A stretch of 29,761 nt of DNA from a virus (lineage: Duplodnaviria > Heunggongvirae > Uroviricota > Caudoviricetes): IMG/VR virus record IMGVR_UViG_2531839374_000020; one strand, written 5' to 3'. Shown here one piece after another: positions 12,001 through 18,000 of the stretch; position 1 is the stretch's first letter; each line of letters begins with the position of its first letter. A program made the position numbers.

Positions 12001-15000
12001 TCGCGCCCACTCTGGCGTACGAGTTCAAGAACCTGCCCTTTAATTTTTTCCCGCTCTTCTTGTGTAAAAACTTTTGCCACAAGCCCTCCTGAAAATTACC
12101 TCATGACCAGAAATTAACACTTACCCCCTGAAGCCCGGCGGAATTTCGTTATCCGGTTCAGAAATATGATTCACACAACGCTGGTTGTTCGTGCCGCTTA
12201 CCGGGAGCAACCAGGGGTTCTCAAAATTCCGGTCCGGTCCAAAAAACGTCGTCGCTCGCTGAACAAATTCCGTTCCCGTTTTCCCGGTAGCCGCCAGGTA
12301 TCTTGCGTAACGCCTCACGCCATCCAGCATGGCCTCTGGTGGCACCCCCTCGCGTAATCTGGCCTTCCAGGCACTGAAAGCGGATTTCTTCGGGTTTGCC
12401 CCGGCACGCAACGGGTACTCCCGCCAGACCTGTTCGAACACATCCGGATAATCCACTCGTCCCACAGACTGCCCGGTGTTTTCCGGGACTACCCGATCGG
12501 CTTCCCGCTGAATGGCGGAATCGGCTTCAGGCTGCTGCAGTTGGTGTGATTGCTCCGGACTTGCGGTCATCGCCTGCTGCACAGCGCCCGAATCGGCTTT
12601 CAGCGCATACGCTGAATCGGCTTCCGGTGTCGTGCCTGCTGGCTGACCAGGATTGACGGTCTGAACATCCCCTGCCTGGTTCGTGGCGTTTTTTACGCCA
12701 TGGACCATAGTGTTTTGATCTTCTTGATCTGTATCTTTATCTGTATCTTTATCTGTCGTGACTCGTCGTGACATGTGCGTGACATATCGTGACGCGCCGT
12801 GACAATCGCCATTTTGTTCCCGCTTTCTTTCCCTCTCTCGCTGCGCCCTCTTGCGCTCTGCAGGAGATTTTGCGGTTTGCGAAATATTGCCGTTGTCCTC
12901 TTTCAGCACCTGGCGTTTTTCCCATCCAGTGATTAAATCACCATCAAGTACCCGCCCCTGCATCGTCTGCAAAATTGAATCAATTACCTCTTCTGTCACG
13001 TCGAGCGCACTTGCCAAATCTTCTGTCGTGACATCAATGTGACCTCGCGTGACATTTCGTGACGCGCTCACCAGGAGGTGGATATACACTGCCATCACTG
13101 TTGCAATTGGCTGCCCTGACACCCTGGCAATTGTTCGCCACTTAGGGTCATTTGGCATGTCATGCCATAATCTGAGCCAGGCGTTAGCCATACTCACCTC
13201 TTTTGATACCGAATCTTTTTACTCACAAATTGCCGGAAGTGATCCGGTATGAATATTGCGAGTCAATGCACAGCCACAATATTTCCTGCAGGGCCACCAC
13301 GATTCATCTGGTTGAAACCAGCGATCGCCACTGCGACAAAATCATCAGCGTCTCTCACCAGTCGTTCCCGCGTCTCCACTAGTTCCCGAAAATAGGCTGA
13401 GCTATGGCTGCGCATTCGGGCCACCAGCAGAGGTGGCATTGCTTTTTCGATAGCTGGTAACAACGCCTGAATTTTTTTAAGCGCATCAGGGGTGTCTTTC
13501 TCCACCCAGCGGAAAATTTTCTGAGTATTGCGAGCCAGGGCTTCCGGATGGCTGTCGTCATACAGTTCCGGGAACGTCATTCCCAGCTCGAAATACGCTT
13601 TGGTAATTTTCGCAGCCGGTACTTTTTCGCCGTCCGGATGCGCCCAGGCATTCATCGCCATGCGGATGTGTTCATGCTTGATTTTCATGAATCAACTCCC
13701 ATCAGCTTTTTCGTAGTAGTTTTATTCCTGCCAATAGTTAAAATTGCATCGGCAGAAAATAATCCGTTTGATGGGTAATGACTCCAACTTACTGATAGTG
13801 TTTTATGTTCAGATAATGCCCGATGACCTTGTCATGCAGCTCCACCGATTTTGAGAACGACAGTGACTTCCGTCCCAGCCTTGCCAGATGTTGTCTCAGA
13901 TTCAGATTATGTCGCTCAATGCGCTGAGTGTAACGCTTGCTGATAACGTGCAGCTTTCCCTTCAGGCGTGATTCATACAGCGGCCAGCCATCCGTCATCC
14001 ATACCACGACCTCAAAGGCCGACAGCAGGCTCAGAAGACGCTCCAGTGTGGCCAGAGTGCGTTCACCGAAGACGTGCGCCACAACCGTCCTCCGTATCCT
14101 GTCATACGCGTAAAACAGCCAGCGCTGACGTGATTTAGCACCGACGTAGCCCCACTGTTCGTCCATTTCAGCGCAGACAATCACATCACTGCCCGGTTGT
14201 ATGCGCGAGGTTACCGACTGCGGCCTGAGTTTTTTAAGTGACGTAAAACCGTGTTGAGGCCAACGCCCATAATGCGTGCACTGGCGCGACATCCGACGCC
14301 ATTCATGGCCATATCAATGATTTTCTGGTGCGTACCGGGCTGAGAGGCGGTGTAAGTGAACTGTAGTTGCCATGTTTTACGGCAATGAGAGCAGAGATAG
14401 CGCTGATGTCCGGCAGTGCTTTTGCCGTTACGCACCACGCCTTCAGTAGCGGAGCAGGAAGGACATCTGATGGAAATGGAAGCCACGCAAGCACCTTAAA
14501 ATCACCATCATACACTAAATCAGTAAGTTGGCAGCATTACCCTGCAACCGCTATGAAAAAGGCGGGAAAGATGGCATCACAATGACATTTATCGGCCCTT
14601 CCCCCTCTGTTCAGGACAAATCAGCCAGCACTGATAATACCAACATCAACGGCGAAGACATGACTGAGATTGAGGAGAGCATGCTTCTACCTGTCTCCGG
14701 TCAGGAACTGCCCATTCGTTGGCTTGCTCAACACGGCAGCGAAAAACCAGTAACGCACGTTTCACGCGACGAACTCCAGGCATTACACATTGCACGGGCT
14801 GAAGAACTACCGGCTGTTACTGCCCTGGCTATTTCGCATAAAACCAGTCTGCTCGACTCGCTGGAGATTCGCGACCTCCACAAACTGGTTCGTGACACTG
14901 ACAAAGTTTTCCCTAATCCTGGTAATTCAGACCTGGGACTAATAACTGCTTTTTTCGAAGCATACTTGGACGCTGACTACACTGATCGGGGCCTGCTGAC

Positions 15001-18000
15001 AAAAGAGTGGATGAAAGGAAATCGTGTTTCACGCATCACCCGCACGGCTTCCGGTGCTAATGCTGGTGGTGGGAACAAAACCGATCGCAATCCGAATTTA
15101 GTACACACCCTCGACACACTGGATGTGGAGATTGCAGCAGCCACACTTCCGATGGATTTTAATATTTATGAAATTCCGGGCAGCGTTTATCGTCGCGCAA
15201 AAGAAGTAGTCCTGAAAAAAGAAAGTCCGTTCAAAGAATGGTCCGCAGCACTTCGTGCACCCCCGGGTATTCTGGACTATTCCCGCGCCGCTATTTTTGC
15301 ACTTATCCGAAGCGCACACCCTGAATTTTATCACTACCCGGGACGCCTTCAGGGGTATATCAACACCTATTTGACGGAAACTGATCACGAGAACCCCAGC
15401 AAGGAAACTCTCACAGCTACCCGGCATACGCCGGAAAAAGATATCCTGGAAGAAATTAACCGCGAGGTGGTTACTGAGCGTGAAACAGAAGAAGAAAAAC
15501 CACAACCATCTGACGCAATGGCAGGTGAACAGGCAACAACTGAAACAATGGAACCGGATACAACTGAACATTGCCAGAACGCGCAGTCGCTGGATGCTCA
15601 GTCGCAGGTGAGTTCCGCTAACCAAGTAAAAGTCACCGCTGACGAAGTAAACAAAATTATGCAGGCAGCCAATATCAGCCAGCCTGACGCCGATAAGTTA
15701 CTTGCTGTATCGCGTGGTGAATTTGTTGAGGGGATTAGCGACCCTAATGATCCGAAATGGGTCAAGGGGATCCAGACTCGCGATTCTGTGAACCAGAACC
15801 AGCATGAATCGGAACGGAACGACCAAAAAGCGGAACAAAACAGCCCAAATGCGTTACAAAACGAGCCAGAAACGAAACAATCCGAACCAGTAGCGCAACA
15901 GGAACCGGAAAAAGTCTGCACCGCCTGCGGTCAGAGCGGTGGCGGCAACTACCCTGATTGTGGCGCGGTGATGGACGACGCAACATACCAGAAAACATTC
16001 GATGAAGAGAATCAGGTTGAAGTTCAGGAAAATGATCCGGAGGAAATGGAAGGCGCTGAACATCCACACAAGGAGAATGCTGGCAGCGCTCAGGACCACG
16101 CCAGCGATAGTAAAACTGGCGAGACGGCAGATCCCTTAATTACGGTGAATGGTCATCACGAAATCACATCCACCAGCAGGACGTGTGACCATCTAATGAT
16201 CGACCTTGAAACCATGGGAAAAAATCCTGATGCCCCGATCATCTCAATAGGTGCAATATTTTTCGATCCGCAAACCGGAGATATGGGACCCGAATTTAGT
16301 AAGACTATCGATCTGGAAACTGCTGGCGGAGTCATTGATCGGGACACCATTAAATGGTGGCTTAAGCAATCACGCGAAGCGCAATCTGCCATTATGACCG
16401 ATGAAATCCCGTTAGATGATGCACTGTTACAATTGCGGGAATTTATCGACGAAAACTCCGGTGAATTTTTTGTTCAGGTCTGGGGAAATGGAGCCAACTT
16501 CGACAACACGATTTTGCGCCGTTCATACGAACGGCAGGGGATCCCCTGCCCGTGGCGTTACTACAACGATCGCGATGTACGCACAATCGTTGAGCTGGGG
16601 AAAGCCATAGACTTCGATGCCAGAACGGCTATTCCATTCGAAGGTGAGCGCCATAATGCACTTGATGACGCTCGTTACCAGGCAAAATACGTTTCAGCTA
16701 TCTGGCAAAAACTGATCCCGAGTCAGGCTGATTTTTAATGTTCAACCCTAATTGCCGCTAACCGTATATAGTTAGCGGCGGTTATGAGATATAGCTATGA
16801 GCAGCTTATTTTTAACCGAAGATGAATTGCTAATATTAACGGGCTGCAAATATGCAAGCCACCAGCGAAAATGGTTAATGGAAAACGAGCTTCCGTTCTA
16901 TACCAATCGTAGTGGCAAACCGATTGTCAGCCGGGATCTATTTACCTGCAATAAAACTTTACCACCACGCGAGGTAGAGCCGAATTTTGGTGCGATCTGA
17001 TGGGAAGACGAAGGAAAAATCCTGAGCACGAAAAATTACCTCCAAATGTATACCCAAATAAATATAGTTATGTATGGAAACCAACATCCAGCGAATCTGT
17101 AACACTAACCGCCATCAAGGATGGTTTAGCTGCTTTATGGAAAAAGTATGAGGAAACTGTAAATAATCGCGATCGTGCAATGACATTCGGTCGCTTGTGG
17201 GAAAAATTCCTCGCCAGCGCCTATTACAGTGACCTCAGTCCAAGAACACAAAAAGATTATCTGCAACATCAAAAAAGTTGCTTGCCGTATTCGGTAAGGT
17301 GCCGGCAGATTCCATAAAACCAGAACACATCCGTCGATACATGGACAAGAGAGGGGAACAGAGTAAAACGCAAGCCAACCATGAAAAAAGCAGTATGTCC
17401 CGCGTTTACAGTTGGGGGTATGAGCGAGGGTACGTGAAGGCTAACCCATGTGCAGGTGTAAGTAAATTCAAGGCCAAAAACCGCGAACGATATGTAACCG
17501 ACAAAGAATACCAGGCAGTATTAAGCGTTGCACCTCTTCCTGTTTTTATCGCAATGGAAATTGCCTATCTGTGTGCAGCGAGGGTTTCCGATGTGTTATC
17601 GCTGAAATGGGAGCAGATTGGAAACGACGGGATCTTTATCCAGCAAGGGAAAACAGGAAAAAAACAGATAAAAGCATGGAGTCCACGATTACAGGCGGCG
17701 ATCGAAAAAGCAAAACAGTTACCAACATCCGCCTATGTAATCAGCAATCAATACGGCAACCGATATATGTACAAAGGCTTTAACGAAATGTGGGTAGAAG
17801 CAAGAAATCGCGCAGGCAAAATTTCAGGTATTTTAACCGACTTCACCTTTCATGATCTGAAGGCGAAAGGAATTTCAGACTATGAAGGAAGCAGTCGGGA
17901 TAAGCAACTTTTCTCTGGTCACAAAACCGAGGGGCAAGTGCTAATCTATGACAGGAAGGTTAAAGTTTCACCGACACTTGATGTCCCGTTACCTGAAAAT

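Follow-up and report, generated by a model that had tools for sequence, protein, structure and literature searches.

RecE of the Rac prophage (exonuclease VIII), the nuclease half of RecET, carries a PD-(D/E)xK 5'-3' nuclease (PF12684), and T4 DexA (exonuclease A) is a 3'-5' DNase (PMC12153337). The E. coli homologue of DexA, EcD, was reported in anti-phage defence (Kang et al. 2025, PMC12153337). DnaQ-like nucleases occur in lambdoid Rec modules, and stand-alone DnaQ-like exonucleases are a recognised nuclease type of these modules according to the accessible sections of Zheng et al. (2025, PMC12315714). The same sections describe a 'Tritos' class with a nuclease, without SAP, SSB and anti-RecBCD functions and with 7-21 top-strand Chi sites. 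They regard isolated nuclease genes beside int as doubtful members of Rec modules, rate one-gene modules as 'somewhat suspect' and state that DnaQ-type 3'-5' exonucleases usually inhibit recombination rather than promote it. A chimeric RecE-N/DEDDh architecture, the underlying head swap and a function for it are not described in these sections (Zheng, Casjens et al., Genome Res 2025, PMC12315714). Such a fusion enzyme forms a widespread family, and a dead copy of its gene lies in the window, i.e. the whole stretch of 29,761 nucleotides of the IMG/VR virus record IMGVR_UViG_2531839374_000020. With a probability of about 0.5, we read it as the remnant of an early-lytic 3'-5' DNA-end exonuclease gene, the intact product of which would work together with host RecBCD/RecA.

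The ORF at 14528-16738 (+ strand, 736 aa) had been described in the initial annotation as a RecE-like N-terminal region fused to a DEDDh exonuclease, and both parts of this description were confirmed. Pfam Exonuc_VIII (PF06630) was found at ORF residues 14-112 (E 3.9e-26), and ORF residues 18-539 align with residues 84-592 of K-12 Rac RecE at 59% identity (BLASTP). The NCBIfam RecE model PRK09709 was matched at model positions 83-603 of 877 with 796 bits, which is below the cut-off of this equivalog (1269 bits). No significant alignment to the RecE nuclease domain was obtained by BLASTP against K-12 Rac RecE. Homology of the protein to the Rac RecE N-terminus extends to residue ~616 (full-length numbering). 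The shared part of ~600 residues comprises the Exonuc_VIII region, the helical and acidic segments and a CxxC-x7-CxxC motif, and both genes are located in a prophage early-left operon.

The intact 813-aa protein consists of a folded RecE-type part (residues 1-375), a region of acidic character along its whole length (376-620) and a DexA/Rv2179c-type DEDDh domain. In the AlphaFold2 model, which was made for the N-terminal region of the intact protein, residues 1-100 fold with pLDDT 76-89; from this alpha/beta domain only residues 83-100 remain in the window (14543-14596, + strand), residues 1-82 being lost. Of the modules shared across the family, the all-helical RecE-type domain (residues 130-375; 14684-15421, + strand) is the most conserved. 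Fold comparison of the predicted RecE-type N-terminal region gave no informative relative. The long acidic region seen at first reading was located at 15422-16156 (+ strand); its 245 residues carry a net charge of -34, and residues 379-448 are predicted to be disordered (the model ends at 484). It is common to genuine RecE, and the RecE-type homology stops at its C-terminal end. The zinc-ribbon-like CxxC-x7-CxxC motif (15917-15961, + strand) is present in the E. coli subgroup and absent from divergent members; in the window copy its third Cys is replaced by Tyr (nt 15950-15952).

The DEDDh 3'-5' exonuclease domain (Rv2179c-like/DexA-like; 16190-16705, + strand) was assigned by Pfam, alignment and AlphaFold2/Foldseek. 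Pfam Rv2179c-like (PF16473) covers ORF residues 555-726 (E 6e-68, 228 bits; cut-off 27). The catalytic residues D559 (codon at 16202), E561 (16208), D659 (16502), H709 (16652) and D714 (16667; ORF numbering) are all invariant in an alignment of 58 sequences. For the domain model (AlphaFold2, pLDDT 92) the top solved fold matches were T4 DexA (8KEL/8KEN, Foldseek E 7e-12), followed by RNase T, DnaQ and REXO2/Orn. DexA, which also ranks first among solved structures in the sequence comparison (E 8e-8), belongs to the same DEDDh subfamily and has all catalytic residues, but is only about 28% identical to the fusion head. Furthermore, DexA and EcD are stand-alone proteins of ~180-230 residues, whereas the fusion head sits on a RecE-type region of 620 residues. 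Rv2179c of Mycobacterium tuberculosis, the founder of PF16473, falls into the same Pfam family; in contrast to the fusion it is a chromosomal stand-alone exoribonuclease (Pfam description), and it is not among the sequence or fold matches listed for the domain. Since the closest solved relative is a 3'-5' DNase, DNA is the likely substrate; RNA is a possible one because of the activity of Rv2179c. A RecE PD-(D/E)xK nuclease at the C-terminus was rejected, as sequence alignment and fold are both DEDDh. The DEDDh head is joined exactly where the PD-(D/E)xK domain of RecE would begin, which agrees with the domain replacement proposed initially.

The copy in the window has lost its 5' end. An IS1 of 768 bp (13774-14541, insA/insB on the - strand) was identified by its InsA/InsB ORFs, its recognisable terminal repeats and the homology breaks, the alignment with intact prophages breaking off at 13773 and restarting at 14542. 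On the right it adjoins codon 83 of the exonuclease gene, and on the left it ends within a cro/dicC-like gene. The first five codons of the ORF (14528-14542, + strand; TTG start, MAALP) come from the IS1 end and are foreign to the original protein, and BLASTP against the intact protein begins at ORF residue 6. From nt 14543, corresponding to residue 83, up to 16738 (+ strand; codons 83-813 and stop) the remnant is 99% identical to the intact reference, with the three residue changes T322P, A357T and C552Y. A YdaT-family gene in the cII position (13263-13688) and the 3' remnant of the cro/dicC-like gene, together at 13263-13773 on the - strand, form the left border of the deletion, as seen by alignment to the early regions of Tritos and of a related locus (L001). 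The removal of the 5' end by IS1 was correctly recognised before, with 82 codons lost, and the inactivation that was considered possible there is supported. A simple IS1 insertion is ruled out, because ~2.8 kb is absent next to IS1: part of cro, cI, ydfABC, dicF, dicB, ydfD and the 82 exonuclease codons. The remnant lacks promoter, start codon and the first 82 codons, and a promoter search detected no promoter-like site on the + strand upstream of it. This copy is almost certainly non-functional.

The fusion as a one-off event was rejected: it forms a large conserved family, which extends to Enterobacteriaceae other than E. coli. Of 5426 complete E. coli genomes, 1031 contain at least 80% of the query. 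Tritos, mEp460_ev081, Evi and vB_EcoS-640R1, all viable phages, carry the gene in the same position. Of 55 IMG/VR copies, 43 have an uninterrupted ORF of 804-825 aa. At 44-60% identity the architecture is retained in Escherichia, Citrobacter, Kluyvera, Atlantibacter and Enterobacter. Database entries label the fusion 'exonuclease' or '3'-5' exonuclease'. The pooled dN/dS was 0.14 for residues 1-100, 0.13 for 130-375, 0.30 for the acidic region, 0.46 for the Zn/linker segment and 0.20 for the DEDDh domain; the RecE-N/DEDDh fusion is under purifying selection. The N-terminus had been compared to the dispensable N-terminus of RecE. 'Dispensable' is too simple a label for it: purifying selection acts more strongly on its folded parts (about 0.13) than on the nuclease domain. 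That the whole family is a functionless side product of prophage mosaicism, retained by hitch-hiking only, is close to refuted by these selection data: many draft-genome copies and the window copy are truncated or disrupted and prophage early regions are highly mosaic, but the ORF is intact in most viral loci and in viable phages, the folded domains show dN/dS of 0.13-0.20, all catalytic residues are invariant and the architecture persists over five genera.

Partner genes were surveyed in 80 related viral loci, most of which are E. coli prophages closely related to each other (39 unique sequences); hence the following counts are not independent events. The lack of a RecT-like partner, noted before for this locus, is a general property of the fusion in this survey. 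For DEDDh-type genes no RecT or Erf was detected within about 8 kb at any of 52 loci assessable downstream (55 in all). In contrast, recT (PF03837) lies immediately downstream of the nuclease gene at all 12 assessable loci of the PD-(D/E)xK type (13 in all). Thus, among the surveyed loci, RecT accompanies the PD-(D/E)xK head and never the DEDDh head. N-terminal modules are common to about 17 DEDDh-type and 13 PD-type clusters (50% identity), and some RecE genes with recT share stretches of ~900 nt with DEDDh-type genes at 100% identity. In one such pair, L014 (DEDDh) and L013 (RecE with RecT), the genes are identical at nt ~630-1518, and identity drops to ~40% past residue ~600. This abrupt divergence after an identical stretch indicates exchange of the nuclease heads, which takes place by homologous recombination within the coding sequence of the common N-terminal part.

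The intact gene order is cI - ydfABC - dicF - dicB - ydfD - exonuclease gene - xis - int, which places the gene at the distal end of the early-left (pL) operon of lambdoid prophages. Upstream of Rac recE, racC/kilR are found instead of dicB/ydfD. No promoter-like site was detected directly upstream of the intact gene, which fits co-transcription with dicB-ydfD. In Tritos the fusion gene is TRITO_27, located between ydfD and xis, with 96% nucleotide identity over the 3' half; the window copy differs by the loss of operon and 5' end. The annotation of the whole Tritos genome contains no annealase, and 11 Chi sites, nine of them on one strand, were counted against 1.4 expected. Phages such as Tritos and mEp460 are members of the published Chi-rich class with nuclease and without annealase. 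A further tie to recombination is given by a stand-alone homologue of 183 aa with 59% identity to the DEDDh domain, located in an Erf-SSB-endonuclease-exonuclease-Abc2 module of a P22-like phage. Unlike the fusion, such exonucleases of P22-like/epsilon34-like Rec modules have no RecE-type region and occur together with an annealase and a RecBCD inhibitor.

From this context, participation in phage recombination or in the processing of DNA ends is plausible. The intact protein would be made early in lytic growth and act as a putative Mg2+-dependent 3'-to-5' exonuclease on DNA ends, with the RecE-type region presumably delivering or organising the DEDDh head as it does the RecE nuclease. As the phages that carry it lack annealase, SSB and RecBCD inhibitor and are rich in Chi, the protein probably does not carry out RecET-style single-strand annealing. 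Its task may instead be to shorten 3' single-stranded tails, or to process the ends of phage DNA in some other way, so that host RecBCD-Chi-RecA recombination could act.

An exclusion function of the 'HREX' type was considered as well, in which the DexA-like head selectively degrades the DNA of superinfecting T-even-like phages where this contains hydroxymethylcytosine or another modification, and so protects the lysogen. EcD cuts 5hmC DNA, spares unmodified DNA and protects against T4, and in the published homologue lists the fusion family is represented, among others, by Evi VUF53858.1 (826 aa) and Atlantibacter WP_313708006.1 (848 aa) (Kang et al. 2025, PMC12153337). T4 DexA as closest solved relative also speaks for such a function. 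The idea is the least improbable of the alternatives, but still unlikely. The gene is not in a defence island as for EcD but at the end of a repressor-controlled early operon, behind dicB and ydfD and without a promoter-like site of its own, so that expression in a quiescent lysogen is not expected. The residues proposed for 5hmC recognition and tetramer control follow a different pattern: W152 of DexA is Tyr here and H, R, F or A among homologues, D169 lies opposite Ala in a gapped part of the alignment, and the Asp whose loss reportedly makes EcD dimeric and 5hmC-specific is kept (EcD was compared by its published description). PADLOC, which is older than HREX, gave no match. Moreover, the N-terminal region is common to a recombination nuclease.

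Slightly less probable is general nucleic-acid turnover in lytic growth, with recycling of host-DNA oligonucleotides as by DexA or of RNA as by Rv2179c and no role in recombination. Temperate lambdoid phages are not known to degrade the host chromosome. Membership in the Rv2179c-like/DexA family, fold neighbours including RNase T and the oligoribonucleases Orn and REXO2, and the documented scavenging role of DexA (PMC12153337) are in line with turnover. However, the conserved and selected RecE-type region of 600 residues and its exact interchange with a recombination nuclease would be left unexplained, and stand-alone homologues are found in Erf/SSB/Abc2 recombination modules.

The anti-restriction role suggested initially is improbable. 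The acidic region could act as a DNA mimic or attach to a host protein of defence or repair; alternatively, the nuclease could destroy a nucleic acid that forms part of a defence system. Charge, disorder and early-operon position would suit this, and many phage early accessory genes counter host defences. But neither homology nor fold gave a match to known anti-restriction proteins, PADLOC gave no match, and genuine RecE, the partner of RecT, has the same acidic region. Furthermore, constraint within the protein is weakest in the acidic and Zn/linker segment (dN/dS 0.30-0.46), and divergent members have no zinc ribbon.

Downstream of the exonuclease gene, the arrangement corresponds to the xis-int order given before. 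A DUF4224 xis-like gene (16797-17000, + strand) follows directly, with no annealase gene in between in the window. The adjacent tyrosine integrase gene (17000-18036, + strand) is split into two ORFs by a 1-nt deletion, and a tRNA-Ser (cga) at 18064-18153 (- strand) is the attachment site of the prophage at the end of the element.

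The ORF on the plus strand at 14528-16738 is real and codes for 736 aa. Its first five codons are supplied by the right end of an IS1 element (13774-14541). From nt 14543 on, 728 of 731 residues of the product (99%) are identical to residues 83-813 of an 'exonuclease' of 813 aa in an intact relative, E. coli FDAARGOS_944 (locus L001). The three changes are T322P, A357T and C552Y. The initial annotation had described the 5' end as removed by IS1 and the copy as possibly inactive. Both could be confirmed: codons 1-82 are gone and the copy in the window is a pseudogene. By comparison with intact relatives, IS1 stands in place of about 2.8 kb, with which the 5' part of a cro/dicC-like gene, a cI/dicA-like repressor gene, ydfA/B/C, dicF, dicB, a ydfD-like gene and these codons were lost. 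No promoter-like site was found on the plus strand upstream of the remnant.

The N-terminal half is related to RecE. Exonuc_VIII of Pfam (PF06630) was matched with E 3.9e-26 (92.6 bits, cut-off 25), over model positions 81-203 only, because IS1 took away the rest. BLASTP against Rac RecE of K-12 gave 59% identity, residues 18-539 of the ORF corresponding to RecE 84-592. This alignment stops just ahead of residue 615, where the Pfam match to PD-(D/E)xK begins in RecE. For RecE 593-866 nothing significant was detected by BLASTP with the window protein, and the Pfam search gave no match to the PD-(D/E)xK nuclease PF12684, which was found with E ~4e-28 in K-12 RecE and in L013, a viral locus with PD-(D/E)xK head and recT. 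The RecE equivalog of NCBIfam, PRK09709, was matched at positions 83-603 of 877 with 796 bits, below its cut-off of 1269. Regarding membership in RecE, the protein has the N-terminal region and lacks the PD-(D/E)xK domain, a score reaching the PRK09709 cut-off and an adjacent RecT.

The C-terminal head is a DEDDh exonuclease domain. The Rv2179c-like family PF16473 was matched over profile positions 2-177 of 177 (E 6e-68, 228.5 bits, cut-off 27). The catalytic residues of the D-x-E, D and H-x4-D motifs (D559, E561, D659, H709 and D714 of the window ORF) are invariant across 58 homologues. In the 813-aa protein, examples of which are WP_038338946 and TRITO_27 of Tritos, D559 and E561 are residues 636 and 638, and the head spans residues ~620-813. 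T4 DexA is the closest solved protein by sequence (E 8e-8). The head is predicted to have an RNase H-like alpha/beta exonuclease fold in an AlphaFold2 model with a pLDDT of 92.1, whose best Foldseek match was again DexA (E 7e-12); RNase T, a DnaQ domain and REXO2/Orn came next, and every top solved match had a probability of 1.00. The proposed combination of a RecE-like N-terminus with a DEDDh head is hence borne out by Pfam, BLASTP, catalytic motifs and the structure prediction that had been suggested as a check. The C-terminus does not align to the PD-(D/E)xK nuclease, and the similarity to RecE is present on real alignment.

The conservation of a partner gene was examined with 80 viral loci that share at least 90% identity with the window protein in the helical module. 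The loci were sorted by head type, and about 8 kb on either side were searched with three RecT types and one Erf. Next to DEDDh-type genes (55 loci) neither RecT nor Erf was detected in any of the 52 loci assessable downstream, while dicB lies upstream in 52 of the 55. For the PD-(D/E)xK type (13 loci) a RecT-type gene abutting or overlapping the stop codon of the nuclease was found in 12 of 12 assessable loci; the two divergent types among them were identified as RecT by Pfam (E 7e-37 and 3.5e-43). As most loci belong to related E. coli prophages, the 52 are not independent events. RecT goes with the PD-(D/E)xK head and not with the RecE-type N-terminus, and the association is perfect both ways. 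In the window xis and int come next and no RecT-family gene lies beside the exonuclease, as the initial annotation had stated.

The exchange of heads can be followed in a nucleotide alignment of L014 (DEDDh type, 7221-9662), L013 (RecE+RecT type, 7221-9893) and K-12 recE. A stretch of about 900 nt (nt ~630-1518) is shared by L014 and L013 with 100% identity; their identity is 87-92% up to residue ~596 and then falls to random level (~40%). Therefore the shared N-terminal coding region provides the homology by which Qin/mEp460-like and Rac-like prophages swap heads, with or without recT. The alignment indicates that some of these swaps are very recent.

Domain replacement, as supposed for the window locus, is correct, but it is a property of a large family annotated in databases and not of this locus alone. 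Of 5426 complete genomes of E. coli, 1031 contain at least 80% of a 2.7-kb query. Tritos, mEp460_ev081, Evi and vB_EcoS-640R1, phages that are viable or sequenced, carry the fusion gene as well, always between dicB/ydfD (or kil) genes and xis-int. The architectures were surveyed by a search of 1.8 billion cluster representatives and local domain mapping with BLAST. RecE-type N-terminal modules carried a DEDDh head in about 17 clusters and a PD-(D/E)xK head in about 13 (clusters at 50% identity). DEDDh fusions occurred in Escherichia/Shigella, Citrobacter, Kluyvera, Atlantibacter and Enterobacter. Other arrangements were encountered as well. P0244 (703 aa) has the RecE N-terminus joined directly to a RecT domain, apparently via deletion of the nuclease. 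Among the long proteins, P0257, P0250, P0252 and P0323 contain an Exonuc_VIII region and no recognisable C-terminal nuclease; such proteins may be the 'RecE-2' proteins named by Zheng et al. (2025, PMC12315714).

In IMG/VR the ORF of DEDDh-type loci is intact (804-825 aa) in 43 of 55 cases. For 39 unique sequences the pooled dN/dS (Nei-Gojobori), a rough figure because the genes are mosaic, was 0.14 for residues 1-100, 0.13 for 130-375, 0.30 for the acidic region, 0.46 for the Zn/linker part and 0.20 for the DEDDh head. These values show that selection maintains the protein over its full length, also in the RecE-type part. According to an AlphaFold2 model of residues 1-484, the intact protein begins with a small alpha/beta domain (1-100), followed by a helical domain (130-375, pLDDT 80-95), with disorder predicted at 101-122 and 379-448. 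The region of residues 376-620, acidic with a net charge of -34, includes a CxxC-x7-CxxC motif in the E. coli subgroup and RecE. Of 47 E. coli-type fusions, 45 retain this motif, as does K-12 RecE; divergent members of either head type do not have it. In the window copy the third cysteine of this zinc-ribbon-like motif is changed to tyrosine (15950-15952). This change was considered as a second inactivating lesion and set aside, as the motif is optional across the family. A Foldseek comparison of the RecE-type N-terminal region with BFVD gave nothing below E 0.28 and thus no hint at its function, and the PDB yielded no sequence match to the N-terminal 615 residues.

The family is catalogued in databases and uncharacterised, with kinship to RecE and to DexA-like DEDDh nucleases. 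Many records are named 'exodeoxyribonuclease VIII', 'RecE family exodeoxyribonuclease' or 'exonuclease VIII, ds DNA exonuclease'. Such labels stand for a 5'-3' activity of the PD-(D/E)xK type, for which the sequence gives no support; on many copies they predict the wrong activity. A literature search on Rv2179c and prophage returned nothing. In their survey of 325 lambdoid genomes, Zheng, Casjens, Davidson, Amundsen and Smith (Genome Res 2025, PMC12315714) list DnaQ-like 3'-5' nucleases as one nuclease type of lambdoid Rec modules. They describe a 'Tritos' class of four phages with nuclease, without SAP (annealase), SSB and anti-RecBCD function and with 7-21 Chi on the top strand. Phages without a recombination system of their own are argued there to use Chi and host RecBCD. 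Kang et al. (NAR 2025, PMC12153337) solved the structure of DexA and showed that EcD, a homologue of DexA from E. coli, cleaves 5hmC DNA and gives protection from T4 ('HREX'); their homologue tables list the fusion members VUF53858.1 of Evi and WP_313708006.1 of Atlantibacter. The available parts of PMC12315714 and PMC12153337 describe neither the chimera of RecE N-terminus and DEDDh head, nor the link between head and RecT, nor a function for it.

For Tritos, 11 Chi sites were counted compared to 1.4 expected; none of 100 shuffles reached 11, and the strand split is 9:2. Its full annotation contains no annealase, SSB or RecBCD inhibitor. The intact relatives (Tritos as whole genome, L001 and mEp460) carry the nuclease gene in the early-left operon without SAP, SSB and anti-RecBCD gene, whereas in the window itself the early-left operon is deleted. 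Furthermore, a stand-alone homologue with 59% identity to the DEDDh head lies inside an Erf-SSB-Abc2 recombination module. Because of this homologue and of the Chi-rich phages without SAP or RecBCD inhibitor, we propose with a probability of roughly 0.4-0.5 that the fusion protein processes DNA ends and thereby aids recombination by host RecBCD and RecA. In the lytic phase the protein would be made from pL; directly upstream of the intact gene no promoter-like site was found. The head would break down DNA 3'-to-5' like DexA, its closest characterised relative, and the RecE-type region would have the same targeting or organising role as in RecE. One example of such end processing would be the trimming of 3' tails, which would allow RecBCD to load.

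Linear-linear recombineering works better with the N-terminal two-thirds of RecE, to which no function had been assigned in decades (review PMC11611040). A further proposal, which we regard as less likely than not, is that the N-terminus is a portable, head-independent module taking a nuclease to a particular DNA end or to a host partner, with heads of opposite polarity; the DEDDh version would then stand for a recombination function of Chi-rich lambdoid phages that is independent of an annealase, an exonuclease trimming 3' tails of phage DNA for host RecBCD. In that case the two natural chimeras, when compared, would show what the RecE N-terminus does. The family is a natural experiment, with the same strongly selected N-terminal region, a nuclease of opposite polarity and no RecT, which separates the role of this still unexplained N-terminus from RecT-coupled 5'-3' resection. 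As the fusion protein is the sole recombination-like gene in a Chi-rich lambdoid class thought to rely on host RecBCD, it also gives a direct handle on how such Chi-dependent phages use host recombination.

Among the alternatives, an exclusion nuclease comparable to HREX ranks first, although we consider it unlikely. The gene lies in the pL operon without a promoter-like site of its own, which argues against constitutive expression. Moreover, the residues proposed for reading 5hmC do not seem to be conserved. DexA W152 aligns to Tyr, and D169 to Ala in a gapped region of low identity; both positions vary among homologues. The tetramer-forming Asp (DexA D90; Ala in EcD) is kept in the window protein, with moderate confidence in an alignment of 28% identity. 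EcD (HAK9828821.1) itself was searched by its 23-nt primer core, which gave no exact match in the viral or genome contig collections, and none of the retrieved proteins begins with MIDTET or ends with PETYD. The gene may have been codon-optimised, or may be missing from a collection with one genome per species. General turnover of DNA or RNA by the nuclease comes second and is improbable as well. An anti-restriction function had been considered in the initial annotation; exerted by the acidic region, such a function or an anti-defence one is very unlikely. No supporting homology was found for it, and the PADLOC defence models gave no match. A non-functional by-product of mosaicism is contradicted by the selection data and hardly credible.

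The window copy as such is of interest solely because it marks the decay of a prophage in a Shigella-type genome. Genes for prophage replication, nin-region genes, IS600 and an ipaH gene are situated upstream of the remnant; the first part of the window (1-8400) holds the ipaH-type T3SS effector gene, tail-fibre remnants, a methyltransferase gene and then IS600 (~7153-8330). Downstream follow a DUF4224 xis-like gene, an integrase pseudogene (17000-18036) and tRNA-Ser (cga). The integrase gene is split into 17000-17317 and 17278-18036, as one A is absent at position 272 of the 1041-nt ORF of the intact relative. The element lacks structural genes amounting to about 23 kb that are present in E. 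coli FDAARGOS_944. Identical partial exonuclease proteins are from Shigella flexneri and S. boydii. From this gene set and these proteins, the window is a heavily decayed lambdoid prophage with ipaH at serU in a Shigella-type chromosome, and the ipaH prophage at this site points to an origin from Shigella or EIEC.

Many draft contigs of S. flexneri and S. boydii (~1.8 kb; proteins P0121-P0202) start precisely at the junction with IS1 (…NRYEKGG), and all end at …WLKQSREA within the DEDDh domain. These ends suggest that a second prophage copy forms a repeat, the boundary of which breaks assemblies there. Further copies of 414 aa, truncated independently, occur in the viral contigs L057 and L061 (7221-8465 in each), with IS-like genes a few kb downstream in L057; decay of the exonuclease gene is recurrent. 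ydfE of K-12 Qin has the same place after ydfD and was rejected as a truncated counterpart, as it has no BLASTP homology. In the stretch 19998-29761, homology of a yeeJ-like gene for a large Ig-like adhesin ends at about 25.3 kb, where an IS3-family element and then head and tail genes (portal, HK97-gp10-like and major tail) of another prophage follow. The window contains 11 Chi sequences (GCTGGTGG) versus 0.88 expected from shuffles; three (15062, 16170 and 16859) lie within or just after the exonuclease gene, and eight are at other sites.
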